Source: a bacterium (GTDB taxonomy: Bacteria > Patescibacteriota > Microgenomatia > Daviesbacterales > UBA10151). From it: a DNA stretch of 40,869 nucleotides. The notes beneath the pieces were generated by a model. That model was not told where the DNA came from. It made no database searches and saw only the letters and a list, made by a program, of their open reading frames with translations. Below, piece after piece: positions 5,600 to 29,101 of the stretch (position 1 is its first letter; each line of letters opens with the position of its first letter). The position numbers were made by a program, and so were the translations under genes. The stretch is taken from NCBI GenBank assembly GCA_021786105.1, contig JAJYNW010000013.1, forward strand, positions 1 to 40,869, written 5' to 3'.

Positions 5600-5719
5600 G
5601 TCATCCTGAACTTGTTTCAGGATCTCTTTTGATAGGGATTCCGAAATAAATTCGGAATGACGCTTGGAAAACATATTGCTTCGTCTCCTTCGGCTACGCT
5701 CAGGACTCCTCGCAATGAC
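5600..5719. repeat. Cluster of GTCAT-family units downstream of the GIY-YIG gene
   Basis: GTCATCCTGAACTTGTTTCAGGATCT (5600-5625), GGATTCCGAAATAAATTCGGAATGAC (5636-5661), ATTGCTTCG...CCTCGCAATGAC (ends at 5719). Confidence 0.92.
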
Positions 5720-5743
5720 AATTTAATTAACCAAACCAATGAA

Positions 5744-5752
5744 TGGTATAAT
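5744..5752 (+). promoter_or_regulatory. Extended -10 element (TGGTATAAT), leaderless-type, for pflB
   Basis: Consensus TGnTATAAT 6 nt before the ATG at 5759; no Shine-Dalgarno. Confidence 0.7.
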
Positions 5753-5758
5753 TCGTAT

Positions 5759-7984: not shown

Positions 7985-7985
7985 T

Positions 7986-8711
7986 ATGCTGCAAGTTCAC
8001 TCCATTGAAACCTTAGGCACTAATGACGGTCCCGGCATCAGAATGGTCGTGTTTATGCAGGGCTGTAATTTCCGCTGTTTGTATTGCCATAATCCGGATA
8101 CCAGACCCACCAAAGGCGGTAAAGAAATGTCTTCTGAAGATATTCTTGAGCTGCTGGAAAAACAGCGGCCCTACTTTAAAAATACCGGCGGTTTAACCAT
8201 TTCCGGCGGCGAAGCCCTCTTGCAAAGAAAAGCCTTAATTGATTTATTTACCAAAGCCAAAAAGGCCGGGTTTAATACCACCCTGGATTCTAATGGTTCA
8301 ATTTTGGATGAGGATGCCAAAAAACTTCTGGAAGTGACTGATTTGGTCCTATTGGATGTTAAACACATTGACCCGGTCTGGCACATGACTGTTACCAAAG
8401 CCTCCAACGAAACCACCCTGCAGTTTGCCAAGTACTTGGAAGAAAAAGGCATTCCCATGTGGCTACGATATGTGTTGGTACCAGGCTATACTAACCAAAA
8501 AGAGTTTTTGGAAAAATGGGGTGCTCATTTCCAAAATTACAAAAACATCAAAAGAGTGGAAATTCTCCCTTTCCATACTTTTGGTTTTTACAAATATAAA
8601 GAATTAGGTATCGAAAACCCGCTGGAAGATTGCCCGGTTCCCACCAAAGAAGAAGTTCAGGAAGCTGTAGATATTTTCAAAAAATACTTCAAATCAGTAT
8701 ATGTCAGGTAA
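7986..8711 (+). CDS. pflA: PFL-activating enzyme (radical SAM)
   Basis: DGPGIR, CNFRCLYCHNPD (CxxxCxxC), SGGE; immediately follows pflB. Confidence 0.95.
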   Translation: MLQVHSIETLGTNDGPGIRMVVFMQGCNFRCLYCHNPDTRPTKGGKEMSSEDILELLEKQRPYFKNTGGLTISGGEALLQRKALIDLFTKAKKAGFNTTLDSNGSILDEDAKKLLEVTDLVLLDVKHIDPVWHMTVTKASNETTLQFAKYLEEKGIPMWLRYVLVPGYTNQKEFLEKWGAHFQNYKNIKRVEILPFHTFGFYKYKELGIENPLEDCPVPTKEEVQEAVDIFKKYFKSVYVR

Positions 8712-14071: not shown

Positions 14072-14112
14072 ATAACCATTATAACGATTATAATTATTAT
14101 AACTGTTATATT
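14071..14112. repeat. 9-bp TATAAYNRT array upstream of the four-helix-bundle gene
   Basis: tataaccat tataacgat tataattat tataactgt tata. Confidence 0.88.
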
Positions 14113-15901
14113 ATTTCTTAAACTGAAGCTTATACATTTCCAATAGCTCTTTAACTGTCGTAGCATCTTCCGGTTTTTTGTCAGCCTCTCTAAATTTCAC
14201 TAACCGGGGAAACCTTAATGCATAACCCGGCTCAGAATCAGTTTTTCCGGCTGTATGCACCGGGCTTTTAGTAATCTCATCTGCCAAAACTTCGATCACA
14301 ATCTCCGGCTTAATCCAAACAGAAGGCACCAGAATTGAATTTACCCTGGCCGGTTTGTGATCCACTTTAATTTTGTCTGCTCTTTTATGAATCTCTCTCC
14401 ACTCCTCATCCGTTAACCCTGTGCCAATTTTAGACACCGTCACAAATTCGTCCTTCGACTCATCATAAACACCTACGAGCAGTGACCCGGCCCCAAACTC
14501 TGCCCTCTTTCCCCGGCCAAAAATATAGCCCAAAATTACACAATCAATGGTATCTTTCAGTTCACCGGCCGAATGCCTTTTTAATTTCACCCAGTTAAAA
14601 TTTCGGGCCCCAGCCTCATAGGTGGAATCCGGCTTTTTACAGACCAATCCTTCCAAACCTTTAGTGATAGCATCGTTGAAAAGCTCGTTAATCCGTTCTT
14701 CTGATTTGGTAAATTCCCCTGGCTGAGCAATCAACACTTCATCACCTGTTATTACCTCCTTCAGTCTTCTCATCCTATCCCGCAAAGATAAATCAATCAA
14801 AGATCGCCCATCCAAATACATCACATCAAAAACAAAGGCCTTAAGTGGCAGTTCTATAGCCATTTCTGCCACCTTGTATTTGCGCCGCCTTTTGGTAGTT
14901 TCCTGAAAAGGTAAAAATTCCTCGGATTGCGGATTAAAAGCCAAGGCTTCTGAATCTAAAATGGCAGTTTTTGCCTTAATTTGCTTCCTGACACCCTCGA
15001 TGATTTCCGGCATCATAGCCGTAGTTTCTTCCAAATTCCGGGAAAACAGCCTTACTTGATCCCCGTTTTTGTGAATCTGCACCCTAAATCCATCATATTT
15101 ATATTGGATATGAACTTCCCCGCCAAACTTTTCTAAAATGGTTTTGGCATCAGGCAGTCTTTCAGCCAACTGCGACCTAATTGGCCTGCCGACCGTAACA
15201 TCCAGCTTTTTAACTCCCTCCAAACCCTTTTTCCAAAGCACCTGGCCAATTAAACCTAAATCAGAAGTTTTATTGTAAGCCCCTTCCAACTCTTTCCTCT
15301 TTTTACGGTCACCTAATTTGGCGAGAGCAAAAGCATCTAAAATAGTCGGATCACCAACCCCCAACCTGGAAGTTCCCAGAGGAATCCGGACTAAGTGTTT
15401 GGCGGAAATTGGATTAGCTTTTTGTAAAAGATCTACCAGCAGTGCCTGTTTTTTTTCTACTGTCCCCTCGCCAGTTATTTGAGCAATTTCTTTCAACACC
15501 TCAAAAACCCTTTCCACTGTCATTCCGGCCCCTGAGCCGGAATCTATATTTTTGGATCCCTGCTTTCCCCGCAAGGGGACTAGCTTCTTCGAAGCATCGC
15601 GCAGGGATGACAATTTGTAGGCCACTACCCCCAAATCCCCTACCCGACCATACTCTTTTAAAACTTCCTCCCGGTCTATTCCGTAAGCTTTGGCAATACT
15701 GGCGGCCACTGTCCGTTCTGCCATCCCAATCTCAATCGGCTCATAAAAGGGGGCTACCCGGCCCTGAATCAGATAAACCACTTTAGCAATTTCCTCTGCT
15801 TTCACCTCTTTAAACAGCTCGGAAAGAATATCAATTAGAGCTAGTCTCGAGGAAGTTTGTTCCAATTTTTCAAAATATTCAGCCAGTTGGGAAAATAACA
15901 T
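14111..15901 (-). CDS. lig: ATP-dependent DNA ligase (archaeal/LigI-like architecture)
   Basis: YKYDGFRVQIH (KxDG), FSRNLE, VFDVMY, EGLVCK, WVKLK, ALRFPR; N-terminal DNA-binding domain. Confidence 0.93.
   Translation of the reverse strand: MLFSQLAEYFEKLEQTSSRLALIDILSELFKEVKAEEIAKVVYLIQGRVAPFYEPIEIGMAERTVAASIAKAYGIDREEVLKEYGRVGDLGVVAYKLSSLRDASKKLVPLRGKQGSKNIDSGSGAGMTVERVFEVLKEIAQITGEGTVEKKQALLVDLLQKANPISAKHLVRIPLGTSRLGVGDPTILDAFALAKLGDRKKRKELEGAYNKTSDLGLIGQVLWKKGLEGVKKLDVTVGRPIRSQLAERLPDAKTILEKFGGEVHIQYKYDGFRVQIHKNGDQVRLFSRNLEETTAMMPEIIEGVRKQIKAKTAILDSEALAFNPQSEEFLPFQETTKRRRKYKVAEMAIELPLKAFVFDVMYLDGRSLIDLSLRDRMRRLKEVITGDEVLIAQPGEFTKSEERINELFNDAITKGLEGLVCKKPDSTYEAGARNFNWVKLKRHSAGELKDTIDCVILGYIFGRGKRAEFGAGSLLVGVYDESKDEFVTVSKIGTGLTDEEWREIHKRADKIKVDHKPARVNSILVPSVWIKPEIVIEVLADEITKSPVHTAGKTDSEPGYALRFPRLVKFREADKKPEDATTVKELLEMYKLQFKK
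15519..15611. repeat. GTCAT-family element in-frame in the ligase gene
   Basis: GTCATTCCGGCCCCTGAGCCGGAATCT...GGATCCCTGC[nested hairpins]GCAGGGATGAC; 93 bp. Confidence 0.9.
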
Positions 15902-15952: not shown

Positions 15953-16735
15953 ATGATTCGTACCGAAGAAATGGGAGGTGTTGCTGCTGAGATTCAACAC
16001 GGTTCGGCAGAGATATTATCCTTAACTGAAATAAGGAGACGAGCGGCAGATCTTATTGAGGATCCCGAAGCAAGAAAAGCAGTTGATGCCTACTTAGTTA
16101 TGGCCGCCGGACTCGATCAACTAGTGGAAGGGGTGGCTAATAAACGGCTATTCAATCAAAAACTGGAAGAATCAGTTGCCAGAGCGCAAAGAACCGGAAT
16201 CCCCCTTACTCTGCTGCTCTGTGATTTGGATAACTTCAAGCCTTTTAATGATAAACTTGGACATAAAGTTGGTGATGAAGTTTTACAAAAAGTCGGCAAT
16301 AATATCAAGCGGCATACCAGAATAACCGATACTGTCGCAAGACTTGGTGGGGACGAATTTGGCATAATCTTGCCAGACACTTCCCTGGTTCACAGCCTGG
16401 TTGTAGCAGACCGGGTATTAACAAGCATACCAAACATAAGACCAACAGTTACCCAAAACAGCCTGGTTCCCCAACTCGGCGTATCCATAGGAATTGCCCA
16501 GTTTGCTCCTGGAGAAAACGCCCAAACCTTTTTCGAAAGAGCGGACACAGAAGGTTTACTCATAGCAAAACAACAAGAAGGAAAAAATGCAATTGGTTTA
16601 GCACTTCATCCTGGCCAGCACTTATCTTTTGGTAATTTACGGTCTACAATATTGAGCGATACAGGAATTAGCTCCCAGCAGCAAGTTGCCTTAATTAACC
16701 ATATCCTGGATAAAACCTTCTTAACCAGTAAATAA
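15953..16735 (+). CDS. Diguanylate cyclase (GGDEF domain, no recognisable sensor)
   Basis: DLDNFKPFND..GH..GD, RITD I-site, ARLGGDEF, SIGIA. Confidence 0.88.
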   Translation: MIRTEEMGGVAAEIQHGSAEILSLTEIRRRAADLIEDPEARKAVDAYLVMAAGLDQLVEGVANKRLFNQKLEESVARAQRTGIPLTLLLCDLDNFKPFNDKLGHKVGDEVLQKVGNNIKRHTRITDTVARLGGDEFGIILPDTSLVHSLVVADRVLTSIPNIRPTVTQNSLVPQLGVSIGIAQFAPGENAQTFFERADTEGLLIAKQQEGKNAIGLALHPGQHLSFGNLRSTILSDTGISSQQQVALINHILDKTFLTSK

Positions 16736-16753: not shown

Positions 16754-17380
16754 TTAGGCAACTTTTTGAGGCTCATCTTTTGCCAATACAACCCATTTTC
16801 TAGGCCAAGTGGAGAATAGTTTTATTACGTCGCTGGGAAGAGAATCATTTATATTAGCCCGACGCATTAAATTTAAGTTCGTTGCCAGCAAGTCAATATC
16901 ATCAAGATCAAAGGGTTTTTGAAGAGCCATTACAAAACCGCTTTCTTTCAAGTAGCTCTTGCCCTGTTCCGTTGTTACATGCTCGCTACCTGATAGCGAA
17001 ACAACAACCGGCAGTAAACGATTTGGGTCTGGATTTTTTCGTTGTAAGGCGAAAGCCTGCGCCATAGCCTGTCTGGCCAGTTTAGCTCCATCAAGATTCT
17101 CTAAAGTCATTTCTTTTGGCTCTCTGCTGATTAAATAACCATCAAACATCAGTAGGTCAAAAGGTCTTTGCAATTTATAACTCTGATTCAACAGCTGCCT
17201 GCCCTCTTTTAATCCTTTACCTAGAACAACCTCGTATTCATAAGCCCCGAGAAATATTCCCATAATCTTACGAACTTGCGGGTCATCATCAACCACTAAA
17301 ATCCTCTTCTGGCCGTCAACGCCATTCTGTAAACTCTGTCCCTCGCTAGTCCGGCTCTCTGGGGATTTGCCTAAACTCAT
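16754..17380 (-). CDS. Single-domain response regulator (receiver)
   Basis: RILVVDDD, FDLLMFDG, SLSG, KPF. Confidence 0.75.
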   Translation of the reverse strand: MSLGKSPESRTSEGQSLQNGVDGQKRILVVDDDPQVRKIMGIFLGAYEYEVVLGKGLKEGRQLLNQSYKLQRPFDLLMFDGYLISREPKEMTLENLDGAKLARQAMAQAFALQRKNPDPNRLLPVVVSLSGSEHVTTEQGKSYLKESGFVMALQKPFDLDDIDLLATNLNLMRRANINDSLPSDVIKLFSTWPRKWVVLAKDEPQKVA

Positions 17381-17450
17381 AGCTAATTATTATATACCAC
17401 TAGTCAAATCTCTTGCACCCAATTTTAGAATATAAGAACCTTGCCTTTTG

Positions 17451-18539
17451 CTAGCGCAAAACGTAAGCTGCTTTTTTAGTGCCGCCGGCTTTTTTAACCA
17501 AGCCTTTTTGGCGGAGGAATTTCAGCTCTCTTAAAACCGTATCATCCGAATAATCCGGGAAAATCTTCCGGAAATCTTTATTGGACAAAGCTTTGTGCCG
17601 GTGGATATATTCCATAATCATCATTTGCCTTTCGTTTAGCATCAACTGCTTGCCTAATTTATCCTTAATCCGGGCATCCACCGAAATCCTTTGCACTTTT
17701 TCCTTAACCCGGTTTAGCTCAATCGCCACCCCTTCGGTAAAATACTCCAGCCAGGGGGTTAAATCCCGCTCATGGGTATCCAACACCAATTGATTAGAAA
17801 CAGCCTGCAAAGTTAAATAATATTGCATCAGATTTTCATCAAAATATTCCTCAAAAGAAAAAAACTTCCTGATATCATAACCGTCTAAAAACAGAATCAG
17901 GGTAGCCACAGCTCTCGCTACCCGGCCATTCCCGTCCACAAAAGGATGAATCCTGGCCAGTTCATAGTGGATAATCCCGGCTTTGATAATCGGGTGGATT
18001 TGTTTAGTCTCATCAGAGTTAATCCAGTTGACCAAATCTTCCACCAAATACGGCACTTCCACAGCGGGCGGCGGAGTGTAGGAAATTTGTCCGGTCTTAG
18101 TATTCCTGATTACTACCTGCCTGATTCTAAACCGACCCGAAGTCTCCGGTGACAGAATTTTTTCAGTGGTGAGTTTATGCATTTCCAAAAGAGTTTCAAG
18201 AGTAAAAATGTAACTGCCCGATCCGGTAGCTGTCGGACCAATTTTGGTATAAATCTCATCAATAAACTTTAAAACATTCCGATAATTAATGATTTCCTGA
18301 ACATCCCGGTCCCGGGCAATCACTTCCTCCCCTTCCAACACATCCCGGACTTCTTCCTCGGATAATTGATTGCCTTCCAAATGTGTCCCATGGTGAATAG
18401 TCCTTTCAATTGCTTCCTTCCTAAACTTAGCTTCCCAAGCCGGCACTAAAGGAGCATTAACAATAATCTCCCTCGAGGCTTCCACGATACCAATATCCTT
18501 CAGTATCTTATTGGTGATGGTGTATTTGGGGATGAACAT
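17451..18539 (-). CDS. Fic family protein with a C-terminal winged HTH
   Basis: HPFVDGNGRVAR Fic motif; HLEGN; LNERQ...TVLRELKFL..KGLV. Confidence 0.92.
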   Translation of the reverse strand: MFIPKYTITNKILKDIGIVEASREIIVNAPLVPAWEAKFRKEAIERTIHHGTHLEGNQLSEEEVRDVLEGEEVIARDRDVQEIINYRNVLKFIDEIYTKIGPTATGSGSYIFTLETLLEMHKLTTEKILSPETSGRFRIRQVVIRNTKTGQISYTPPPAVEVPYLVEDLVNWINSDETKQIHPIIKAGIIHYELARIHPFVDGNGRVARAVATLILFLDGYDIRKFFSFEEYFDENLMQYYLTLQAVSNQLVLDTHERDLTPWLEYFTEGVAIELNRVKEKVQRISVDARIKDKLGKQLMLNERQMMIMEYIHRHKALSNKDFRKIFPDYSDDTVLRELKFLRQKGLVKKAGGTKKAAYVLR

Positions 18540-18595
18540 TGATTCAATTATCGCATTTTTCCCGCAAAAATTCTACGTTTACCAAAGGCCGATAT

Positions 18596-21500
18596 TTAAT
18601 GATGGTCTACATATCCGTCCCAAGCCTTAATCTCCAAATCTTCCTTTTTCTTGGAAGCCAAAGACGACACAAAAAGCTCTGCTGCCTGCAGATTAGTAAT
18701 TAAAGGTATACCTAAATCCACACAATTCCTTCTAATAATATAGCCAGCAGTCTCCCCAGCTTCTGATCTGGGTTTAGAAATGTTAATCACTAAATCTATG
18801 ATGCCCTCTTTTATCGGATCTAAGATGGAAGGGTACTTTTTCTCAGCGATTTTATGAAGTAAGGTATTTTTAATACCATGTTGGCTCAAGAATTTTGAGG
18901 TATGATCAGTAGCATAAATCTTAAAACCAAGTTCTGCCAATATTTTAGCTGATGGCAGTAAATCTAATTTACTTTTCTCCCCGCCAATTGTTAAAAATAC
19001 AGAACTTTTAGGCATTTTAAAACCAACTGCCAGGATGGCCTTAAGATACGCTTCCTGCAAATCTGAACCAAAACAGGCTACCTCTCCAGTCGAAGACATC
19101 TCTACCCTAAGCCGCGGATCTGCTCCTTTAATCCGGTTAAAGGAAAACTGCGGAGCCTTAACCCCCACATAATCTAAATCAATGGTTTTATAAGTGCCAG
19201 ACAACTTCTCCCCCAACATCACCCGAGTAGCCATCTCCACAAAATTAAATCCCGTGACTTTAGAAACAAACGGGAAAGAACGGGAAGCCCGTGAGTTTAA
19301 CTCAATCACCATAATCTCGTTATCCTTGGCCAAAAACTGAATATTAAACGGACCGTTGATATTCAAGGCTTTGATTATCTTTCTGGTAGCGTCTTTGATC
19401 TTCCTAACAGTTTCCAAAAATAACCTCTGCGGCGGTAATACAATGGTAGCATCACCGGAATGCACGCCGGCATTTTCCACATGCTCAGAGATAGCGTAAA
19501 TTAACAGATCTCCTTTTTGTCCAACCCCATCTACTTCAATCTCCTTAGCCCCGTCCACAAACTTGGAAATTACCACCGGATGCTCAGCGGATACATCGGA
19601 AGCATCTTGCAGGTATTTTTTCAAATCACTATCAGAATAAGCCACATTCATGGCCGATCCTGACAACACATAAGAAGGCCTGATCAGAACCGGAAAACCG
19701 ATGGATTTAGCAAATCCTACAGCCTCATTAAGATCTTTCAAGCTTTGCCAGGGTGCTTGTTTAATCTCTAGCTGATCTAATAATTTGGAGAATTTATTTC
19801 TATCTTCTGCCTGATCAATGCTTTCGGGGGAAGTTCCCAAAATCTGATAGCCAGCTTGAAAACACTGCATTGCCAAATTATTCGGCACTTGTCCCCCAAA
19901 TCCTAATACCAGCGAAACATTTCCTGAATTGTCATCCCGAACTCGTTTCGGGATCTTCATATCAGATGCTGAAACAAGTTCAGCATGACATAGTGATTGG
20001 TTTTCGATATCATATATATCACTCACCCTTTCAAAGGTCAGCTCGTCAAAATACAACTTATCTGCTGAGTCGTAATCAGTTGAAACCGTTTCCGGATTGC
20101 AGTTTATGATAATTGTCTCCAAACCTTTATCCCGTAGAGTTTGAGCACAGGTGACAGAACACCAGTCAAATTCCACCGAAGAACCAATCCGGTAGGGTCC
20201 AGAACCTAAAACAATGGCTTTTTTGGCCTTTGATTCTTTTAGTTCTTCTGATTCTTCTCCATGATAAGTCAAATACAAATAGTTGGTCTTGGCTGGATAT
20301 TCGGCTGCTAAGGTATCAATGTGTTTAACTTTAGGCGTAATTCCATGCTTTTTTCTAAACTCTCTAACTTCATCTTCGGTAACCTTAAAGGCTTTAGCCA
20401 ACAACTTATCCGAAAATCCCAGTTTTTTAGCCTGCAGCACTATTTGGGAACTGATGGTTGACAACTGAAGGCTCTTTTCAAACTCAACAATTTCTTTTAT
20501 TTGATATAGAAACCAGGGATCAATACCAGTAGCCTCATAAATGTTTTCTACAGATTCGCCTTTGGCAAATCTTTGCGCAATGGCAAATAACCGTTCAGTA
20601 GTAGGTAACAGCTTGGTATCGTCTACCTCATTACCCAACAAGCCATCTTGGCCGGTTTCCAACATCCGAATGGCTTTTTGTAAGACTTCCGGAAAACTTC
20701 GGCCGATAGCCATAACTTCGCCCACGCTTTTCATCTCCGAACCGATTTGCTCTTTGGCTCCGACAAACTTTTGCAAATCCCACCGCGGAATTTTAACCAC
20801 AATATAATCCAAAGCTGGTTCAAAAAAAGCTGAAGTAGATAAAGTGACGCTGTTTTTTAAATCCGGCAGGTTATAACCCAAACCAATTTTAGCCGCGATA
20901 TAGGCCAACGGGTAGCCGGTGGCTTTAGAAGCCAAAGCTGATGAACGGGACAGCCTGGCGTTTACCTCAATCACCCGGTAATCGTTATTCTCCGGATTTA
21001 AGGCAAACTGAATGTTACACTCCCCCACAATTCCCAGATGCTCGATTACCTGCAAAGAAATTTTCCGGAGATAATGGTACTGATAATTATTCAAAGTTTG
21101 AGACGGAGCCACCACGATACTTTCCCCTGTATGAACCCCCAAAGGATCCAAATTTTCCATATTACAAACAGTGATCTTATTACCGTTGTTATCCCGCACT
21201 ACCTCATATTCGATTTCCTTCCAGTGCTTTAAGTATTCTTCGATGGCAATTTGCGGGGCTTGCTTTAAAGCCGCCGTCACCATTTTGATAAATCCCTCTT
21301 TACTGTTGACCACCCCGGACCCCAAACCACCCAGAGAAAATCCGGATCTGATCAAAAGTGGGTATCCCAAATCATTGGCAATTTTCAAAGCTTCGTCCAA
21401 GGACCGGGCAAATCCCCCTTTCGGAACTTTCACTCCGATTTTGGAAAGCTCCCCGGCAAATAATTCTCTATCCTCTGTCACTTCAACGGCTTTAACCGGT

Positions 21501-21874
21501 GAACCCAAAACTTTCACACCGGCTTTTTTAAACGCTCCCTCGCGTTCCAGAGCTAAACCACAATTTAAAGCAGTTTGACCGCCAAATCCCAAAAATATCC
21601 CGTCCGGCTTCTCCTTCTCAATGACTTTTTTGACAAAATACGGAGTTACCGGCAAAAAGTAGATTTTTTCGGCCAGGTTTTTGGAAGTTTGAATGGTGGC
21701 GATATTGGGATTAATTAACACCGCCTCAACCCCTTCTTCTTTTAAAGCTTTTAAGGCTTGAGAACCGGAGTAATCAAACTCTCCCGCTTCCCCGATTTTT
21801 AATGCTCCGGAGCCTAGCACAAGCACCTTCTTAAGAATATTAGACTTATACGACTTATTTGATCTATCTGACAT
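18596..21874 (-). CDS. carB: Carbamoyl-phosphate synthase large subunit
   Basis: GSGALKIGEAGEFDYSGSQA, EVNARLSRSSALASKATGYP, NCNPETVSTDYD, HSGDAT, MGS domain; start reassigned to 21874. Confidence 0.96.
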   Translation of the reverse strand: MSDRSNKSYKSNILKKVLVLGSGALKIGEAGEFDYSGSQALKALKEEGVEAVLINPNIATIQTSKNLAEKIYFLPVTPYFVKKVIEKEKPDGIFLGFGGQTALNCGLALEREGAFKKAGVKVLGSPVKAVEVTEDRELFAGELSKIGVKVPKGGFARSLDEALKIANDLGYPLLIRSGFSLGGLGSGVVNSKEGFIKMVTAALKQAPQIAIEEYLKHWKEIEYEVVRDNNGNKITVCNMENLDPLGVHTGESIVVAPSQTLNNYQYHYLRKISLQVIEHLGIVGECNIQFALNPENNDYRVIEVNARLSRSSALASKATGYPLAYIAAKIGLGYNLPDLKNSVTLSTSAFFEPALDYIVVKIPRWDLQKFVGAKEQIGSEMKSVGEVMAIGRSFPEVLQKAIRMLETGQDGLLGNEVDDTKLLPTTERLFAIAQRFAKGESVENIYEATGIDPWFLYQIKEIVEFEKSLQLSTISSQIVLQAKKLGFSDKLLAKAFKVTEDEVREFRKKHGITPKVKHIDTLAAEYPAKTNYLYLTYHGEESEELKESKAKKAIVLGSGPYRIGSSVEFDWCSVTCAQTLRDKGLETIIINCNPETVSTDYDSADKLYFDELTFERVSDIYDIENQSLCHAELVSASDMKIPKRVRDDNSGNVSLVLGFGGQVPNNLAMQCFQAGYQILGTSPESIDQAEDRNKFSKLLDQLEIKQAPWQSLKDLNEAVGFAKSIGFPVLIRPSYVLSGSAMNVAYSDSDLKKYLQDASDVSAEHPVVISKFVDGAKEIEVDGVGQKGDLLIYAISEHVENAGVHSGDATIVLPPQRLFLETVRKIKDATRKIIKALNINGPFNIQFLAKDNEIMVIELNSRASRSFPFVSKVTGFNFVEMATRVMLGEKLSGTYKTIDLDYVGVKAPQFSFNRIKGADPRLRVEMSSTGEVACFGSDLQEAYLKAILAVGFKMPKSSVFLTIGGEKSKLDLLPSAKILAELGFKIYATDHTSKFLSQHGIKNTLLHKIAEKKYPSILDPIKEGIIDLVINISKPRSEAGETAGYIIRRNCVDLGIPLITNLQAAELFVSSLASKKKEDLEIKAWDGYVDHH
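19931..19989. repeat. GTCAT-family element in-frame in carB
   Basis: GTCATCCCGAACTCGTTTCGGGATCT tcatatc AGATGCTGAAACAAGTTCAGCATGAC. Confidence 0.92.
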
Positions 21875-22961
21875 ATGATAAAAACTCATCAAACAAATAT
21901 CCGGCATCAACCGGCCCGGGCGAAGCCTCCGGGTGAAACTGCACTGCCATAAATGGCTTCTTCTTGTGCCTGATTCCTTCGTTGGTACCATCGTTTAAAT
22001 TAACAAACCATTCTTCCCAATCAACGCTAAGAGATTTCATATCCACAGCATATCCGTGATTTTGGCTGATAATAATGGCTTTATTGCTGGTTTTATCCAA
22101 CACCGGCTGGTTTTGAGAACGGTGACCGAATTTTAATTTATAAGTTTGCCCCCCGGCCGCCAACCCCATGATCTGGCTACCTAAACAAATCCCAAAAACC
22201 GGCTTGCTCTTGGCCAATAATTGCCTGACTGTTTCTATGGTTTTTTGAGCTTGCGTGGGATCGCCGGGTCCGTTAGAAACCAGCACCCCGTCAAAATCCA
22301 TCTTGGCCTCGATCGGATTAAAATCCCAAGGTACCCTGGTCACCTTCACACCTCTTTTAACCAGGCTTCTGATAATATTTTCCTTAACCCCGCAATCAAT
22401 TAAGACAATATTTTTCTTACCTTCACCATACACCTCAACTTCTTTACAGCTGACATAAGGCAGGACATTCTCCTTATTAGGATCATAGATGAAGTCGTTA
22501 GTCGCCAGAGTCGAGAGTCTAGTATTCTCTTTCTCATTCCTTGACTCTTGACTCTTGACTCTTGACTCTATTCTTCCCAGCATCACGCCGTACTGCCGCA
22601 GTTTGGTAGTCAGAGCCCTGGTATCAATGCCCTGCAAAGCCGGAATCCCTTCTCCCTTTAGCCAGTCACCTAAAGTTTTCTGGCTTTCAAAGTGCGAAGG
22701 ATAGTCTATGTAATTTTGGACAATTAATCCCTTAATCTGGATTTTTTGGGATTCCCAAAAATCCTTTTTCGGTACCCCGTAGTTGCCCTGCAAAGGATAG
22801 GTCAGCACCAGAATCTGGCCATAATACGAAGGATCGGTTAAGGATTCCGGATATCCGACCATACCGGTATTAAAAACTACCTCACCCGAGGTGGGTTGAT
22901 CGGCGCCAAAACTTTGTCCTAAAAAAACTGTCCCATCGGACAGAATCAGTTTCCCTTGCAT
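21864..22961 (-). CDS. carA: Carbamoyl-phosphate synthase small subunit
   Basis: GEVVFNTGM.GY.ESLTDPSY, SNGPGDP, GICLG, QFHPE; start at 22961 with AAGGA SD. Confidence 0.96.
   Translation of the reverse strand: MQGKLILSDGTVFLGQSFGADQPTSGEVVFNTGMVGYPESLTDPSYYGQILVLTYPLQGNYGVPKKDFWESQKIQIKGLIVQNYIDYPSHFESQKTLGDWLKGEGIPALQGIDTRALTTKLRQYGVMLGRIESRVKSQESRNEKENTRLSTLATNDFIYDPNKENVLPYVSCKEVEVYGEGKKNIVLIDCGVKENIIRSLVKRGVKVTRVPWDFNPIEAKMDFDGVLVSNGPGDPTQAQKTIETVRQLLAKSKPVFGICLGSQIMGLAAGGQTYKLKFGHRSQNQPVLDKTSNKAIIISQNHGYAVDMKSLSVDWEEWFVNLNDGTNEGIRHKKKPFMAVQFHPEASPGPVDAGYLFDEFLSYVR
22493..22570. repeat. Inverted 7-bp arrays (AGTCNNN)n...(CTTGACT)4 in-frame in carA
   Basis: agtcgtt agtcgcc ag agtcgag agtctag ... 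cttgact x4. Confidence 0.85.
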
Positions 22962-22977
22962 ATGTTCCTTTCTGCCA

Positions 22978-23910
22978 TTAAATCCTGCCAAGCACTAATG
23001 TCAGTAATGCTTCCCGAATATACAAACCATTTCTGGCTTGTTTAAAATAAATGGCATTTGGGTGGTGGTCCAACACCGGATCGATTTCGTTTACCCTTGG
23101 TAAAGGGTGCATCAACTTAACCCCTTTATCCAAATACTTTTTAAAAGAGGCGTCTAAAATAAATTTATCTTTAACTTTTTTATACTCATCTAAATCTTTA
23201 AATCTTTCTTTCTGGACCCTGGTTTGATAAAGGAAATCCGCCTCTAAGCTTTCAGGTAAACGGTCACATTCTTCAAATGCAACTCCTCTTTCTTTTAAAA
23301 CCTTTAAAAACTCATCCGGCATCTTAAGAGTTGAGTGAGAAATAAAAATTTGTTTGACTTTAAAATGAGACAGAGCCAAAGACAGAGCATGGACAGTCCG
23401 GCCGTATTTTAAATCCCCCATGAAGGCTATCGTAATTCCATCCAGCTTACCTGCTTCTTTCATCATGGTATAAAGATCCAGCAAAGTTTGGGTGGGATGC
23501 TGATTTGGCCCGTCACCGGCATTGATCACCGGAATTTGGGCTACCTCAGCAGCTTTCTTGGCTGATCCGGACTCCGGATGCCTGATAATTAAGACATCAG
23601 CATAAGAATCCATAATTCTGATCGTGTCTGAGAAAGATTCACCTTTGTGAATACTGGTAGCCTTCGGATCATTGAAGCCAATTATACCCATGCCTATTTT
23701 CTGGGCAGCTGAGGAGAATGATTGCTCGGTACGGGTAGAGGGCTCAAAAAACAACAGGGCAGCAATTTTGCCTTGGGCTAAAGTGTAATTGGACCTTTTG
23801 CTTTTGACAAACTCAGGATCAAATTCTTTGGCAGCATTTAACACATAAAGCAGCTCGTCTTTAGAGAAATCGTTAATGTCCAAAATGTCCCGGCCTTTAA
23901 AACTTTGCAT
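22978..23910 (-). CDS. pyrB: Aspartate carbamoyltransferase catalytic subunit
   Basis: FFEPSTRT, INAGDG..QHPTQTLLD, GDLKYGRT, TRVQKER, MHPLPR; start reassigned to the ATG at 23910. Confidence 0.96.
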   Translation of the reverse strand: MQSFKGRDILDINDFSKDELLYVLNAAKEFDPEFVKSKRSNYTLAQGKIAALLFFEPSTRTEQSFSSAAQKIGMGIIGFNDPKATSIHKGESFSDTIRIMDSYADVLIIRHPESGSAKKAAEVAQIPVINAGDGPNQHPTQTLLDLYTMMKEAGKLDGITIAFMGDLKYGRTVHALSLALSHFKVKQIFISHSTLKMPDEFLKVLKERGVAFEECDRLPESLEADFLYQTRVQKERFKDLDEYKKVKDKFILDASFKKYLDKGVKLMHPLPRVNEIDPVLDHHPNAIYFKQARNGLYIREALLTLVLGRI

Positions 23911-23916
23911 TTTTTC

Positions 23917-23941
23917 AAAAAAAACCGCCCCTAAAGGCGGC
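23917..23941 (-). terminator. Intrinsic terminator/attenuator immediately upstream of pyrB
   Basis: Minus strand GCCGCC-TTTAGG-GGCGG followed by T8, ending 6 nt before the pyrB ATG. Confidence 0.8.
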
Positions 23942-23987
23942 AATTAGTTATATTAACTATAAGTGTTTCAAAACAGCGTTTTACCAT
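23931..23987 (-). CDS. Putative pyr leader peptide, 18 aa (MVKRCFETLIVNITNCRL*)
   Basis: ATG at 23987, open to TAG at 23933-23931 in the terminator loop; AGGA and TAGGTT just upstream. Confidence 0.55.
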   Translation of the reverse strand: MVKRCFETLIVNITNCRL

Positions 23988-24014
23988 AAATCCTAACCTA
24001 AATCTTTTGCTAGT

Positions 24015-25100
24015 TTAACCATAAAAGCTCCCTGTGTCAAGTTTTAACACCTGCCCATATGGACCAAATACACTTTGGCCATCATAAGCAATAGCCCCGC
24101 GCAGCACTACTTTTTTTACCTTACCAGTCACTTTCATCCCGGCAAAGGGGGTCCAGCCGGCTTTGGTAAACAAGTGATTAGGGTTTAGGGTATAGGGTTT
24201 AGTGATTTCTGCTTCCACAAAAGTCTCCCGCTGCTCCGGCAAGTTAAAAATCTGGCGGGGATTTTTGGAAGTCAGTTCAATAATTTTATCTACCGTCAAT
24301 TTTCCTTCATTTACCGCTGTCAATAGCAGCGGCAAAGTAGTTTCCAAACCGGGCACGCCATTTGGTACTTTTTCAGAACTCATCTTCTCTTCTTTAGTGT
24401 GCGGGGCATGGTCAGAACCGATCATATCAATTATCCCCTCGGCAATCCCCTGCCACAAAGCTACTTGGTCTTTTTTACTTCGAAGCGGCGGCCGCATCGC
24501 CCCAAATGGCCCTAATCTTTTGGCATCTTCTTCAGTTAAAAACAGGTGGTGACAGGTTGCTTCAGCACTGATTTGTAAACCATTTTGCTTAGCTGCCTTG
24601 ATCATTTCTACTTCTTCTTTTAAAGACACATGGCAAACATGTAATTTATTACCAAATTTGTTGGCCAAACTAAGGGCTTTTTGCAAAGTCTCCCCCTCCG
24701 CATGCACCAAAATTGGTTTTTCTTTGGTCCAAGTTGAAAAGACCTCTTCCAAAATCTGATCATCTTCAATCAACAATTCCCCGGTAGTATGGTTCATATA
24801 CAACTTCAGACCAAAGACTTGATCCTCAACTTCGGCAAAATATTGGATACTTTCCTTGCTGGCCCCGAAATGAAAACCAACATCAGAGTAGATTCGGCCT
24901 TTAGCCAAGTCCATTTTTTGCCGTAAAGCCTCCGCGGTGGTAGTGGGAATCGGATTATTTGGCATATCTAAAACTGTGGTAAATCCGCCGGCAATGGCAG
25001 CTTTAGTACCGGTTTCAAAATCTTCTTTTTGGGTAGCACCGGGTTCCCGAAGATGCACATGAGGATCAACTAAACCAGGTAATTTAACTAAGTTCGGCAT
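24015..25100 (-). CDS. pyrC: Dihydroorotase
   Basis: PGLVDPHVHLREPG, DMPN, HAE, HVCHVS, SDHAPH, WTPF.G. Confidence 0.93.
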   Translation of the reverse strand: MPNLVKLPGLVDPHVHLREPGATQKEDFETGTKAAIAGGFTTVLDMPNNPIPTTTAEALRQKMDLAKGRIYSDVGFHFGASKESIQYFAEVEDQVFGLKLYMNHTTGELLIEDDQILEEVFSTWTKEKPILVHAEGETLQKALSLANKFGNKLHVCHVSLKEEVEMIKAAKQNGLQISAEATCHHLFLTEEDAKRLGPFGAMRPPLRSKKDQVALWQGIAEGIIDMIGSDHAPHTKEEKMSSEKVPNGVPGLETTLPLLLTAVNEGKLTVDKIIELTSKNPRQIFNLPEQRETFVEAEITKPYTLNPNHLFTKAGWTPFAGMKVTGKVKKVVLRGAIAYDGQSVFGPYGQVLKLDTGSFYG

Positions 25101-25119
25101 TTGTTATATGATACAAGAT
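25101..25119. promoter_or_regulatory. Overlapping divergent -10 elements (bidirectional, leaderless-type)
   Basis: TATGAT (+, 25107-25112) 7 nt before ATG 25120; TATCAT (-, 25113-25108) 7 nt before ATG 25100. Confidence 0.55.
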
Positions 25120-25386
25120 ATGGCCAAAAAGAAAAATAACGGCTTATCCTTTTATAAAGAATTTACTACTCAACTAATCACTTTATCTACTTCCGCTTTT
25201 GGTTTTGCTGCTGCTTTAGCTTGGAATGACACCATTCAACAAACAGTCAAAGATTTCATCGAACCAAGTGTACCAGGGGCGGGAATCTTTTCTCGCTTTA
25301 TTTATGCACTACTAGTTACGCTCCTGGGTGTACTAGTCACCTATCAACTATCAAAAATCGCCCGCCGATTAGGTATTAAGAAGTGA
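25120..25386 (+). CDS. Small two-TM membrane protein (DUF5654-like)
   Basis: TSAFGFAAALAWNDTI...FIYALLVT; start at 25120 preferred over 25108. Confidence 0.7.
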   Translation: MAKKKNNGLSFYKEFTTQLITLSTSAFGFAAALAWNDTIQQTVKDFIEPSVPGAGIFSRFIYALLVTLLGVLVTYQLSKIARRLGIKK

Positions 25387-26512
25387 TTTGACCATTCTCT
25401 ACCTTTAAAATCCTGGCTGAGTCTAAAAATGACTGCGGAATATTTTCCAGTTCCACGGTGGCAATCACTGTTTGCTGTTTGGAAACCACCTCCACCACAT
25501 GAGCCCGGTGAGAAGCATCTAGTTCAGAAAATACATCGTCTAGCAATAGTATTGGTCTGGTACCCAAAATTTGAGCCATGTATTCCAACTGGGCCAATTT
25601 AAAAGCCAGAGTGGCAGTTCTATGTTCCCCTCGGGAGCCAAATTTAGCTACATTCCTACCATTGTCATTCTGAGGAGTCTTCGACGAAGAATCTCCCACG
25701 GATGTGGGACTCAAACTAGTTGAGAGATCCTTCACTTCGTTCAGGATGACAATACGGAAATCATCCCGGTGCGGCCCAATTAAAGTCGCTGCCGCTGCTA
25801 TTTCCCGCTCCTGCGTTTGAACCAACTTTTCTTCAGAAACCTTGTTTGGAAGATACTCAAACCGAAATTCTCCTAAGGGTTTTTCCAAAGTATTGATAAA
25901 CTCAAAAAAAGCCAGCCTTTTTGTTGAAATAATTTGCCCGTTTTCCACTAGACCGGCAGTCCAATAATCCAGCTCATCCTTCCTCCCCTGCCCTTCCCTA
26001 ATTCTTTTTAATACCCTGTTTCGAGCGGTTAAAAATTGCTCATAATTTGTCAAAGCTTTTTTATACTCATGATCAACTTGAACCAAAGCCAAATCCAAAT
26101 GCCATCGCCGTAAACTGGGTGATCCGGTCACCATATTAATATCAGAGGGGTAAAAAATAATCGCCGGCAGGTGACCAATAAAATCCACTACCCTACGGGA
26201 AATTCCATTAACCAATACTTTCTTTTTAAACCCCACCTCCTTAGATGGCCTGTTGATAATTACCAGCAACTCAGTTTCCCCTGTGTTTGTCAAAAAACCC
26301 TCAACCCTTGTAAACTCTTCCCCTTTTTTGATCAGTTCATCCTCAGTTTCCACCCGCAGGGATTTGGTGGTAGACAGTAGATAAATTGCCTCCAAAATAT
26401 TGGATTTACCAGCCGCATTGTTGCCGACTAGGATGGTGGGACGGGTATCAAAGTCAAGCTCTAGATTAGAATAGTTGCGAAAATTGGTTAAATTTAGCTT
26501 TTTCAAAAACAT
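25376..26512 (-). CDS. recF: DNA replication/repair protein RecF
   Basis: NFRNY, GNNAAGKSN, GSPSLRR, GPHRDD, GSRGE, LLLDDVFSELD. Confidence 0.95.
   Translation of the reverse strand: MFLKKLNLTNFRNYSNLELDFDTRPTILVGNNAAGKSNILEAIYLLSTTKSLRVETEDELIKKGEEFTRVEGFLTNTGETELLVIINRPSKEVGFKKKVLVNGISRRVVDFIGHLPAIIFYPSDINMVTGSPSLRRWHLDLALVQVDHEYKKALTNYEQFLTARNRVLKRIREGQGRKDELDYWTAGLVENGQIISTKRLAFFEFINTLEKPLGEFRFEYLPNKVSEEKLVQTQEREIAAAATLIGPHRDDFRIVILNEVKDLSTSLSPTSVGDSSSKTPQNDNGRNVAKFGSRGEHRTATLAFKLAQLEYMAQILGTRPILLLDDVFSELDASHRAHVVEVVSKQQTVIATVELENIPQSFLDSARILKVENGQITS
25664..25750. repeat. GTCAT-family element in-frame in recF
   Basis: GTCATTCTGAGGAGTCTTCGACGAAGAATCT...AGATCCTTCACTTCGTTCAGGATGAC; 87 bp. 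Confidence 0.92.
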
Positions 26513-26558
26513 ATCTGGGCAGATATTATCATAAATTTAGCGAAGGGAAGTGGTCTTA

Positions 26559-26711
26559 AGCGAGTAAATAAGCAAAACGCACGTTCTCGACTGTTTGAGC
26601 CAGGCGAGATTAACCAAAACGCACAAGCTTTGACGTGCGTGACGTTAATCGAGCCGGTTCCGAGCGAAGCGAGGAAGGCGAGTTGGAGAACAAGTTTTGC
26701 ATTTGCGAGCT
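26559..26711 (+). other. Intergenic multi-branched palindromic element with repeated tandem GA mismatches
   Basis: Nested stems gcaaaac/gttttgc, gttctc/gagaac, gattaac/gttaatc, acgcac/gtgcgt, ttcc-GA-GCGAAGC-GA-ggaa. Confidence 0.75.
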
Positions 26712-26718
26712 AGTTAAC

Positions 26719-28098
26719 TCATTTCCCTTCCCAATGCCCCAAGCCCAAAAATTCCCGGATCCGATAGGACAAGTGTTCTTTTTTGAAAAACAAACTAGGT
26801 TTTAAACCAAACAAGCCAGCCAATATCACCACTACCCCGATCCCGACAAATATCGGCGCCGTACCGAATATATCAGCCAGGACGCCAGCCACCACAATCG
26901 GTACCAAAGATAATCCGGACATGGCCACCCCCAACACTGAAAAAACCTTACCCCGATCTTTCTCGGATGTGTTTTCCTGTAGCGTGGTTTGTGAGGGCAC
27001 TAAAATGGACACCATGGCAATCCCCAACAAAAATGATCCGACAAAAAGAATCTTTGATAAAGATGGTTGGTAAAAAAACGGCACCGGTCTGGCATGCCGG
27101 AAATATTGGATAGCCGGAGAAACAAACGGTGCAATGCCGACCAAAAACGCCAGTATTCCTCCCAGCAAGATCCCCTTGGCCACCAGCCTTCTTCTGACCA
27201 ACCTATTTCCGAACTTGCCCAAAATTACTCCTCCGGTCACAATCCCCAACCCTAGTGGGATGACTAAAACATAGGAGGCGTCGGTAGCTTTAATCTGTAA
27301 AGATTTTTCCAAAAACCCCGGCATGAGCACTGCCAAAATACCCGCCCCCATTTGCACGCCGGCCAGTATCACAATTGAGGTTAAAACCGGTAATTTTCCT
27401 CTAATCGATCTGATAGTATCCCGAATCTCCGCCGTACCGATTTTCCAAATATTGGCATAATGCTTTTCTTTCAAGGCTAAAATAAATTTTTTGCCCTGCT
27501 CGTCCGGGACAGCAGTGATGGAAGGAAACATCAAAGATAAGAAAAATGCTATTCCCAACACTATTCCGCCTAAGGCAAAGACAAAATCAATACCCAGGTG
27601 ATTAATCAAAGGACCGGCCAAACCAAAACCAATCAAAAAAGCCGAATAAAGGGTGGCAGAAAAGATAGAGTTGGCGGTTAATAATTGGTTTTTCTTAACC
27701 ACAATGGGAATAGCGGAAGCCTCAGCCGGGGCATAAAATTGGGCCAAAGCATTGATCAAAAAAGTCACCAGCAAAATCAACGGCAAACTACCCTTGACAA
27801 AAATCAGGCTTAAAAATAACAGGCTTAAACCAAAATCAATTCCCATGATAATCTTTTTCCGGTCGATCACATCCACCAATACTCCACTAAATAAACCCAA
27901 AATGACTGCCGGCAGGTAAATTGCCAAAATTAAAGCTGATACGGCCGTATTGGAATCAGTTAGTTTAAATACCCACAGGATCAGGGTGAAATTTAAGGAA
28001 TTAAAAGACAGTTGAACTAAGATCTGATTGACCCAAAGATTTAAAAACCCAGGGTTGGCAATCACCGAGGTAAATGTTGGTTTCTCGCTCATAGCCAT
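26719..28098 (-). CDS. MFS transporter
   Basis: About 12 hydrophobic segments; SGVLVDVIDRKK motif A; TTLQENT....RGKVFS. Confidence 0.9.
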   Translation of the reverse strand: MAMSEKPTFTSVIANPGFLNLWVNQILVQLSFNSLNFTLILWVFKLTDSNTAVSALILAIYLPAVILGLFSGVLVDVIDRKKIIMGIDFGLSLLFLSLIFVKGSLPLILLVTFLINALAQFYAPAEASAIPIVVKKNQLLTANSIFSATLYSAFLIGFGLAGPLINHLGIDFVFALGGIVLGIAFFLSLMFPSITAVPDEQGKKFILALKEKHYANIWKIGTAEIRDTIRSIRGKLPVLTSIVILAGVQMGAGILAVLMPGFLEKSLQIKATDASYVLVIPLGLGIVTGGVILGKFGNRLVRRRLVAKGILLGGILAFLVGIAPFVSPAIQYFRHARPVPFFYQPSLSKILFVGSFLLGIAMVSILVPSQTTLQENTSEKDRGKVFSVLGVAMSGLSLVPIVVAGVLADIFGTAPIFVGIGVVVILAGLFGLKPSLFFKKEHLSYRIREFLGLGHWEGK

Positions 28099-28103
28099 TG
28101 GAT

Positions 28104-28195
28104 ATTATAACTCGCCAGAGTTACAAGAGCGAGATGTAATCGAAGCGATTATAACTCGCCAGAGTTACAAGAGCGAGATGTAATCGAAGCGATTA
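28104..28195. repeat. Perfect 44-bp direct tandem duplication
   Basis: ATTATAACTCGCCAGAGTTACAAGAGCGAGATGTAATCGAAGCG at 28104-28147 and 28148-28191, plus ATTA. Confidence 0.95.
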
Positions 28196-28270
28196 ACAAC
28201 TTAAAAAAAGTAAACAGACTAGCTTTTCTCACATAATTGCAGTATATTACGGCTGAAAATAAATAAATCT

Positions 28271-29101
28271 ATGCTCGAATCACTACAAAAATCACCCGGC
28301 GACATATCTAAGATTAGAAGCACACCTGAGGAGGTAATAACGGAACGACTCTATTTGCTGCGAGGATTTGTCAACACAGGAAGAAGGTTAAGTATACTAG
28401 GAGTTGATGAAATAGCTCAGCACCTGAATGAGACACGAACCCGCTTTCCGCGTTTTTGGCCTGATCAGAACTACCAACCATCAGTAGGAACATTAAAAAT
28501 ACTGGCAAGCTCTTTTAAACTTACTGAACGGGAAGGAGAAATACTTGAGTCAGTAGTTTTAGGACAAACCTCAAAAAGAATAGGGACTGGCTTTCACCTA
28601 TCCCCTAAGACTGTTGAAAATTATAGAAACCACATACTTAAAAAATTAGACGTACGGTCGCACTCAGAACTAACAGTGAGAATGATAAACGATGGATGGT
28701 TTAATGCTGGTACATTAGCCCAAAAATTGGAATGTAGCACTGAAGAGGTCCAAGAACCAACCGGAGAAAAGAACGAAACAAGTGTTGAAATATCACAAAT
28801 CCTAACCATCACAGGAAAGCTTCTGAAAACATTTGAAACTATTGGACTTAAGAAAAAATTAGAATACAACGCTGGCGGAGTCCAAAAGTTAACTCCAGGA
28901 GAAGAGAGAGTTTTAAAAGCTATGGCTGAAAAAGGAGGCCGGATTCAAGATGTAGCTAACACTCTTAACCTTTCTAGCAAAACAGTTGAAAATTATTTAT
29001 ATAGAAGCCGCAGAAGATTTGGGGCAAAAAATAGCATCGAATTACTTATTAAGTTTATGGCAGAACAAGAAAGAAATAATGGAGCCCAAGATTATGTTTG
29101 A
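28271..29101 (+). CDS. Transcriptional regulator with two LuxR-type HTH domains
   Basis: LTEREGEIL...LSPKTVENYRNHILKKL and LTPGEERVL...LSSKTVENYL. Confidence 0.8.
   Translation: MLESLQKSPGDISKIRSTPEEVITERLYLLRGFVNTGRRLSILGVDEIAQHLNETRTRFPRFWPDQNYQPSVGTLKILASSFKLTEREGEILESVVLGQTSKRIGTGFHLSPKTVENYRNHILKKLDVRSHSELTVRMINDGWFNAGTLAQKLECSTEEVQEPTGEKNETSVEISQILTITGKLLKTFETIGLKKKLEYNAGGVQKLTPGEERVLKAMAEKGGRIQDVANTLNLSSKTVENYLYRSRRRFGAKNSIELLIKFMAEQERNNGAQDYV

Follow-up and report, generated by a model that had tools for sequence, protein, structure and literature searches.

A short leader reading frame and terminator upstream of pyrB in Daviesbacteria: a candidate translation-coupled transcription attenuator

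The window, as we call the whole 40,869-nucleotide (nt) stretch of DNA analyzed here (contig JAJYNW010000013.1 of assembly GCA_021786105.1), derives from Candidatus Daviesbacteria (Microgenomates group, Patescibacteria) and carries the genes pyrB, carA and carB on its minus strand. Immediately upstream of pyrB we observe a leader module, which consists of a candidate promoter, an 18-codon open reading frame (ORF) and a GC hairpin followed by a U tract. With slightly more confidence than doubt, we suggest that this module is a translation-coupled transcription attenuator gating pyrB-carA-carB, of the kind described for pyrBI and pyrE, compressed into about 70 nt, nearly leaderless and independently evolved. 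Comparison of related genomes supports the attenuator reading well; a ribosome is likely to be what gates the terminator, and sensing of pyrimidine nucleotides through the speed of the polymerase is plausible.

Bacteria of the candidate phyla radiation have tiny genomes and few recognizable regulators. A literature search found nothing in print on transcription attenuation in these bacteria, and for Daviesbacteria together with pyrimidine it returned only ecological works, as judged by their titles and the first lines of their abstracts. A conserved switch that governs the first steps of pyrimidine synthesis with no regulator would show how such cells control their metabolism by kinetics alone. 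It would also offer a compact and testable case of ribosome-polymerase coupling outside the model bacteria, and mean that a design familiar from enterobacteria has also arisen independently elsewhere.

Architecture of the pyrB leader

Read along the minus strand, the locus comprises the 3' end of a dihydroorotase gene, a promoter-like site, the leader ORF, the hairpin, T8, the hexanucleotide GAAAAA, pyrB, carA and carB. The features of the module and of the genes behind it are as follows.

24035..24040, minus strand: -35 hexamer TTGACA of the candidate leader promoter (promoter scan), invariant in 25/25 aligned modules
24012..24017, minus strand: -10 hexamer TAAACT, which includes the TAA stop codon of the upstream dihydroorotase gene; TAAACT in 24/25 modules, TAAAAT in 1/25
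23931..23987, minus strand: leader mini-ORF of 18 sense codons and TAG, MVKRCFETLIVNITNCRL; ATG at 23987-23985, TAG at 23933-23931
23969..23975, minus strand: TGTTTTG, U-rich tract 12-18 nt after the leader ATG, read from the sequence
23945..23959, minus strand: local AU hairpin TAGTTA-ATA-TAACTA, present in the window
23924..23941, minus strand: putative terminator hairpin of 7 pairs, including 5 G-C (terminator scan), its 5' arm rich in C and its 3' arm rich in G
23917..23924, minus strand: U8 tract of the putative terminator, ending 6 nt before the pyrB ATG, with GAAAAA between
22978..23910, minus strand: pyrB, aspartate carbamoyltransferase catalytic chain, 310 amino acids (TIGR00670, 350.7 bits against a cut-off of 236.95)
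21864..22991, minus strand: carA, carbamoyl-phosphate synthase small subunit (TIGR01368, 453 bits); ORF as listed, the true start probably some codons in
18596..21991, minus strand: carB, carbamoyl-phosphate synthase large subunit (TIGR01369, 1445 bits); ORF as listed, the profile match beginning at about residue 51

The candidate promoter, TTGACA-17 nt-TAAACT, has 10 of 12 consensus matches, and the leader ATG lies 24 nt past its -10 hexamer. The core of the hairpin is formed by CCGCC (23940-23936) pairing with GGCGG (23929-23925), which places the leader TAG in the loop. In a scan of positions 17000-29000 this hairpin ranks first of 25 terminator-like sites, and we infer that it acts as a terminator. 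An earlier note on this DNA, which made no mention of a promoter, had described an 18-codon ORF with its TAG in the loop of a GC hairpin, a U8 tract and the pyrB ATG 6 nt further on; on re-reading, all of these coordinates are correct and the UGUUUUG tract that it pointed out is present at 23975-23969. The promoter is added here. The second hairpin of that note, TAGTTA-ATA-TAACTA, does occur in the window; it is not predicted to be conserved among relatives, being absent from the RNAalifold consensus. A TTG at 23943, the start of a listed 321-amino-acid ORF whose frame runs through the hairpin, was rejected as the start of pyrB because relatives align from the ATG at 23910.

With the hairpin and U8 only 6 nt before the pyrB ATG, no -10-like hexamer fits into the gap between them in the window, which bears out the claim that pyrB can be reached only by read-through. 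Among the 25 related loci compared below, the distance from the U tract to the pyrB ATG is 1-13 nt in 15 and 27-182 nt in 10. The window and 14 other loci leave no space for a pyrB promoter, and pyrB must there be transcribed through the leader unit.

The genome of the window, labelled G000, has 26 contigs totalling 1.04 Mb and a completeness of 92%. Elsewhere it contains pyrF with an adjoining pyrE-like gene, as well as a pyrD-like gene, so that de novo synthesis of uridine monophosphate is plausible. No leader comparable to the pyrB module was found at the pyrF/pyrE-like or pyrD-like genes of G000.

Conservation and distribution of the module

We detected pyrB in 33 of the 61 relatives searched. 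The training set comprised the 25 family pyrB loci with readable upstream DNA, and the module is upstream of pyrB in every one of them, regardless of which gene is the upstream neighbor. All 25 are built alike, with TTGACA-17-TAAACT (TAAAAT in one case) followed by an ATG that opens a short frame, then by a GC hairpin and 6-8 T. The earlier note had proposed to look in related genomes for a short ORF that overlaps the hairpin ahead of pyrB, and such an ORF is clearly kept. At E <= 0.001, a covariance model built from the 25 aligned modules matches 49 of the family's 96 genomes. The family makes up the whole order, and the order-level search with the model covered the same 96 genomes. Nearly throughout there is one match per genome, with G034 and G016 each having an additional weak one. 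In G000 the string TTGACA-N17-TAAACT occurs at 3 sites and is followed by the leader at only 1, so the module is unique in the genome. Outside the training set we collected 22 further modules, followed by pyrB in 18 cases, by carA-carB in 3 and by argG in 1. This gives a total of 47 modules, 43 before pyrB, 3 before carA and 1 before argG. The recurrence of the module is more than chance.

The model detects the module in this one family only. The module is not present at 3 pyrB loci from other families of the same class, nor at the divergent, unlinked pyrB of G034. The model matches 1/143 genomes in a sample of the class and 1/150 in a sample of the phylum, in each case on reading a generic promoter-terminator pair. 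These out-of-family matches (two in G059, one in G349) were therefore rejected as pairs of that generic kind; one is beside a tRNA and none is near pyr genes. Three weak matches within the family (L116, L118 and L119, E ~0.001-0.005) were likewise discarded, as they correspond to other hairpins and contain no module; L116 stands before a cytosine-deaminase-like gene.

Several minor features of these loci were recorded. The cargo behind the module varies, being pyrB-carAB in the window, carAB in genus g75, and argG with an arginine dihydrolase-like gene in G093. The surroundings stay the same despite the change of cargo: L120 (G093) and L121 (G098) retain the arrangement recF ... module ... Fic-domain gene. 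In five loci (L007, L013, L022, L023 and L024) a palindromic insert of about 22 nt (GATTCTGGACA..CCAGAATGA), which resembles a small dispersed repeat, lies between the attenuator and pyrB. Finally, L129, upstream of the unlinked pyrB of G098 (g75), reads TTGACT-17-TAAACT, then ACTTTTTTGAA, with a TTG start 11 nt past the -10 hexamer. This sequence has a T6 run at its predicted start site; G100 has T4 at the corresponding place, and G102 has no such run.

The leader reading frame is kept open

The ATG frame is open to 9 nt or less from the stem in all 25 training modules and in 20/22 new ones, 45/47 overall. Frame +1 is open that far in 1/25 training and 2/22 new modules, and frame +2 in 0/25 and 2/22. 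When the leader bodies were shuffled 1000 times with dinucleotide composition preserved, a mean of 6.65 of the 25 frames were open (sd 2.2, maximum 13), as compared with 25/25 observed. The leader bodies have diverged to a median pairwise identity of 0.63; therefore, common descent by itself does not account for the open frame. The leader is 12-18 codons long in 23/25 loci. Based on these observations, the mini-ORF is probably translated.

The encoded peptide is only weakly kept; its recurrent features are an M-x-K-K/R start and hydrophobic residues behind it. A nucleotide motif that the loci share, TTTAATAG, encodes L-I-V or F-N-R depending on the locus. Because the peptide is weakly conserved and the shared motif is read in different frames, translation as such, rather than a particular peptide, seems to be what is retained. 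We found no residue in recurrent runs that could serve as trp-type regulatory codons, and 7/25 peptides, counted by eye, have no arginine. Sensing of arginine was rejected, as runs of arginine codons are absent from the leaders and ArgR was not found in the genome.

These data also bear on whether the unit is a small gene in its own right, complete with terminator, whose product is a micropeptide or a small RNA and whose position before pyrB is coincidental. Promoter, transcript of about 75 nt and strong terminator would indeed form a complete unit, and the common start of the peptides fits a gene product. We give this explanation hardly any credence: the window and 14 other loci have no room for a separate pyrB promoter, the peptide is poorly kept with shared nucleotide motifs read in different frames, and the unit is always found with pyrB, carA or argG, in single copy in G000 and in nearly all other carriers.

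Geometry of stop codon, hairpin and polymerase

From the leader ATG to the start of the stem is 42-47 nt in 25/25 modules, and from the ATG to the last U of the tract 66-73 nt. Relative to the start of the stem, the stop codon lies at -9 to -1 in 31 of the 47 modules, in the loop in 10 (window included), past the hairpin in 4 and early, at -21, in 2; in 41/47 it falls at -9 to +8. A ribosome waiting at this stop would have its P-site codon at most 34 nt from the last U in 25/25 modules, and 28-34 nt from it in 17. For E. coli, excerpts of a structural study place the P site 34 nt from the active site of the polymerase in the collided expressome; with NusG coupling, the distance is 38 nt (bioRxiv 10.1101/2020.03.01.971028). 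By this comparison, each of the 25 measured ORFs is predicted to be just long enough for the ribosome to meet the polymerase at the release site. With only 66-73 nt from the ATG to the last U, the ribosome would be left behind unless it loaded as early as possible and matched the polymerase in speed, or the polymerase slowed. Stop codon position has a large effect in E. coli, where, according to excerpts of PMC4824070, shifting the stop from 28 to 5 bp before a terminator lowered termination from about 90% to less than 10%, and full termination required more than 27 nt between the two.

The terminator is the only structure predicted by RNAalifold on the 25 modules, and 5 of its 7 pairs are supported by compensatory changes. 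In every module read, the 5' arm is C-rich and the tail is U6-8. No antiterminator or anti-antiterminator RNA was found in the RNAalifold consensus of the 25 modules, and the leader bodies show no extra structure relative to shuffles (mean z +0.31).

Short 5' untranslated regions

In 17/25 modules the leader ATG is 11-14 nt past the -10 hexamer, implying a 5' untranslated region (UTR) of about 5 nt. In 7/25, the window included, it is 21-24 nt past the hexamer, with AGGA 3 nt before the ATG there. A consistent Shine-Dalgarno motif is absent from the module leaders. Among long ORFs of the genome (n=831), -10-like hexamers of the form TAnnnT peak 6-7 nt before the ATG, with 103 and 68 occurrences at these distances against ~17-36 at 13 nt or more. 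This peak makes leaderless or short-leader starts look ordinary in this Daviesbacterium. Shine-Dalgarno-like motifs are barely enriched in G000 (18% vs 11%), though its 16S rRNA ends in the usual anti-Shine-Dalgarno sequence. Leaderless or very short-leader mRNAs thus seem common in this organism.

Search for other regulators

The earlier note had suggested a factor-independent attenuator. In G000, the best match to the PyrR profile NF003549 scores 20.8 bits, against a cut-off of 138 bits. The PyrR-binding RNA (Rfam RF00515) gives 0 matches in G000, with the positive controls Bacillus and Lactococcus detected, and ArgR is not found in G000. Within the window, Rfam returns 0 matches at the gathering score; the best one below it, at 26.8 bits against a threshold of 50, is driven by the terminator. 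With no PyrR, PyrR RNA site or ArgR found in this 92% complete genome and the terminator as the only conserved structure, a factor-independent design is favored.

We considered whether a trans-acting protein or small RNA, binding the leader or promoter region, could control the terminator, with the open frame being secondary. Some nucleotide motifs are kept irrespective of frame (TTTAATAG is one), TAAACT plus the A-N-C after it is nearly invariant, and the promoter spacer contains a T tract, all of which might mark a binding site. Such a site would not account for a frame open in 45/47 modules or a stop codon at -9 to +8 in 41; furthermore, the transcript has no conserved structure or long motif, and neither PyrR nor ArgR was found in the genome. 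We regard control by a trans-acting factor as decidedly improbable.

Proposed mechanism

In E. coli pyrBI, polymerase pausing that is sensitive to uridine triphosphate (UTP) and a coupled ribosome on the pyrL leader block the terminator, and pyrE uses the same logic. Our model for the Daviesbacteria module is as follows. Transcription would begin at the TTGACA-17-TAAACT promoter, and about 70 nt past the leader ATG the polymerase would meet the intrinsic terminator. As the terminator has no RNA competitor, only a ribosome on the 12-18-codon leader ORF, close behind the polymerase, would prevent it from folding. The ORF extends to the base of the hairpin, into the loop or, in a few modules, past the whole hairpin, which would allow the ribosome to run up to the polymerase on the U tract. 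Timing would be very tight: the ribosome would have to load as soon as the 5' end is exposed, and to do so on a very short 5' UTR that carries no consistent Shine-Dalgarno motif. Read-through would be favored by slowing of the polymerase at any of three places: the leader, which is rich in U and poor in C, the C-rich 5' arm, and the U8 tract. Low UTP, and perhaps low cytidine triphosphate (CTP), would thus slow the polymerase, let the ribosome catch up and allow read-through; with abundant pyrimidine nucleotides, the polymerase would outrun the ribosome and terminate.

The composition of the leader is in line with such a signal. It contains 39% T and 6.1% C, as compared with 30% and 16.7% at the 5' ends of ORFs in the genome, and only 2.5% of ORF 5' windows are as C-poor. 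T is found at ATG+16 and ATG+17 in 22/25 modules. One can go further and picture a minimal attenuator of about 70 nt, in which the ribosome is in physical contact with the polymerase for only ~12 codons and reaches collision distance (<=34 nt) exactly as the polymerase sits on the U tract, the C-poor leader, C-rich 5' arm and U8 making the race sensitive to CTP as well as UTP. This specific version is tentative, and we would sooner doubt than accept it. If true, it would be a direct sequence-level sign of tight transcription-translation coupling in candidate phyla radiation bacteria, and a self-contained, regulator-free pyrimidine sensor in a 1-Mb genome.

Several observations weigh against the attenuator as we propose it. 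A look-up of RNA runs containing positions 22900-24700 of the window listed none. A 5' UTR of about 5 nt would be expected to give poor translation in E. coli, and the expressome distances used above, being from E. coli, may not suit the smaller ribosomes of this phylum. Two loci, L105 and L114, have ORFs of 6-7 codons that end 21 nt before the stem (2/47). The U tract after the ATG is modestly enriched (47% T vs 40% in the rest of the leader), a T run of at least 4 follows the ATG in just 14/25 loci, and a polymerase pausing at this tract would not yet have exposed the ATG, to which the tract lies too close to aid ribosome loading. As to pyrimidine specificity, the 3 carA-carB modules are all in genus g75, where pyrB sits elsewhere without a module, and the argG module, in G093, precedes argG and the arginine dihydrolase-like gene in a genome where no pyrB was found. 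Because the module also stands before carAB alone and before argG, the signal need not be specific to pyrimidines.

These points raise the question whether the same ribosome-gated terminator operates without nucleotide sensing. It could report translation capacity or growth state, such as ribosome availability or the stringent response, or set a fixed low read-through, and ribosomes leaving the mini-ORF might in addition re-initiate at pyrB. All of the evidence for ribosome gating fits this explanation equally, as do the carAB and argG modules and the modest conservation of the U tract. Re-initiation in particular would suit a pyrB that has no Shine-Dalgarno motif and whose ATG follows the U tract within 1-13 nt in 15/25 loci; re-initiation after leader peptides has been proposed elsewhere, as excerpts of PMC4833913 indicate. 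With 27-182 nt between the U tract and the pyrB ATG in the other 10/25 loci, re-initiation cannot be general. By far the most modules are linked to genes for the first steps of pyrimidine synthesis (43/47 pyrB, 3 carA), and the leader is unusually U-rich and C-poor, both of which count against a gate without a sensor. We consider such a gate unlikely, although it deserves to be kept in mind.

UTP sensitivity could also arise at the start site itself, through reiterative transcription of the kind found at E. coli pyrBI and carAB P1, acting as the main or an added control. The window has GATTT ~8 nt past the -10 hexamer, and TTT occurs in the predicted initially transcribed region of the window and of 14/25 modules, read by eye. 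For E. coli, excerpts of PMC6524683 and PMC6245113 state that a run of at least 3 T shortly after the start is needed. In the Daviesbacteria modules, also read by eye, 9/25 have TT only and 2/25 have none, so reiteration would not be general. The T run would begin at about +4 of the predicted start, later than in the E. coli cases, and the ORF and terminator would be left unexplained. The chance that reiterative transcription is involved appears slim.

Comparison with known attenuators

We compared the module with E. coli rph-pyrE and pyrL-pyrBI, measured here. In rph-pyrE the frame, when undisrupted, has its TGA 8 nt ahead of the stem and its last sense codon 38 nt from the last U; in the truncated K-12 rph frame the stop is 37 nt before the stem. 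Like rph-pyrE, the Daviesbacteria module has an intrinsic terminator directly before a pyrimidine gene and a frame ending a few nt before the hairpin (1-9 nt in 31/47), and in both there is no antiterminator RNA, the ribosome itself blocking, or being predicted to block, the hairpin. The upstream frame differs: in E. coli it is the full-length gene rph, whereas in Daviesbacteria it is a dedicated mini-ORF with its own promoter, and the two have no sequence relation.

E. coli pyrL is a 44-codon ORF with a Shine-Dalgarno motif; its ATG is 88 nt from the hairpin, and its frame continues across the terminator to a stop codon only 3 nt short of the pyrB ATG. The two leaders have in common a promoter, a dedicated leader ORF, a U-rich leader, a GC hairpin with U8 and the same controlled gene, pyrB. 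In both, the ribosome would have to trail the polymerase closely to suppress termination, and 14/47 Daviesbacteria modules (window included) resemble pyrL further in that the stop is in the loop or past the hairpin. In contrast to pyrL, the Daviesbacteria leaders have 12-18 codons (23/25), 42-47 nt to the hairpin, mostly a 5' UTR of ~5 nt, and ~70 nt in total. Compared by eye, the Daviesbacteria leader and E. coli pyrL share nothing beyond the general form of the terminator. Most modules in Daviesbacteria therefore combine the geometry of pyrE with a dedicated mini-ORF and promoter like those of pyrL, in ~70 nt. The earlier note had raised the possibility of convergence. Because the module has no likeness to pyrL in sequence or size and its distribution is limited to one order, here a single family, an origin independent of E. 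coli pyrL is supported, as is the conclusion that the module probably works like the pyrBI and pyrE attenuators and is not descended from them.

The module also differs from other classes of attenuator. PyrR-dependent pyr attenuators (Bacillus, Thermus) have a terminator in the pyr leader as well, and a PyrR-dependent variant in Thermus is reported to have a leader ORF that spans the terminator. Unlike these, the Daviesbacteria module comes without a detected PyrR, PyrR-binding RNA or anti-antiterminator structure. Compared with a trp-type attenuator, it has no runs of regulatory codons and no competing 2:3 and 3:4 hairpins, and most stops lie 1-9 nt from the stem or inside it; excerpts of PMC4824070 give a stop more than 20 bp from the terminator as a criterion for the trp type. 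In Deinococcus deserti, leader peptides are predicted whose transcripts begin with the start codon or 1 nt ahead of it, and, as far as excerpts of that study show, these leaders stand before amino-acid biosynthesis and tRNA synthetase genes, contain runs of the cognate residue and follow trp-type logic (PMC4007540). The Daviesbacteria leaders differ from them in having no regulatory codons and a predicted 5' UTR of ~5 or ~17 nt, rather than 0-1.

Neighboring genes

Other genes of the window were annotated as follows.

24015..25100, minus strand: short-form dihydroorotase (pyrC), upstream neighbor of the module, 361 amino acids (TIGR00857, 300.7 bits); outside the module in most relatives
25108-25386, plus strand: DUF5654 ORF between recF and pyrC
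5657-8708, plus strand: pyruvate formate-lyase-like enzyme with activase
14111-15901, minus strand: ATP-dependent DNA ligase
15953-16735, plus strand: GGDEF protein

In the dihydroorotase, translation begins right ahead of the metal-binding motif DPHVH, and ~45 residues at the N-terminus of the profiles have no counterpart. Stop codons upstream indicate that this short form is not a frameshift. The nearest relatives of the aspartate carbamoyltransferase outside Daviesbacteria (L059-L067) are mostly archaeal, at 44-49% identity, and include Bathyarchaeia, Thermoplasmataceae, Nitrosocaldus and Archaeoglobus, which hints at an old transfer of this enzyme.

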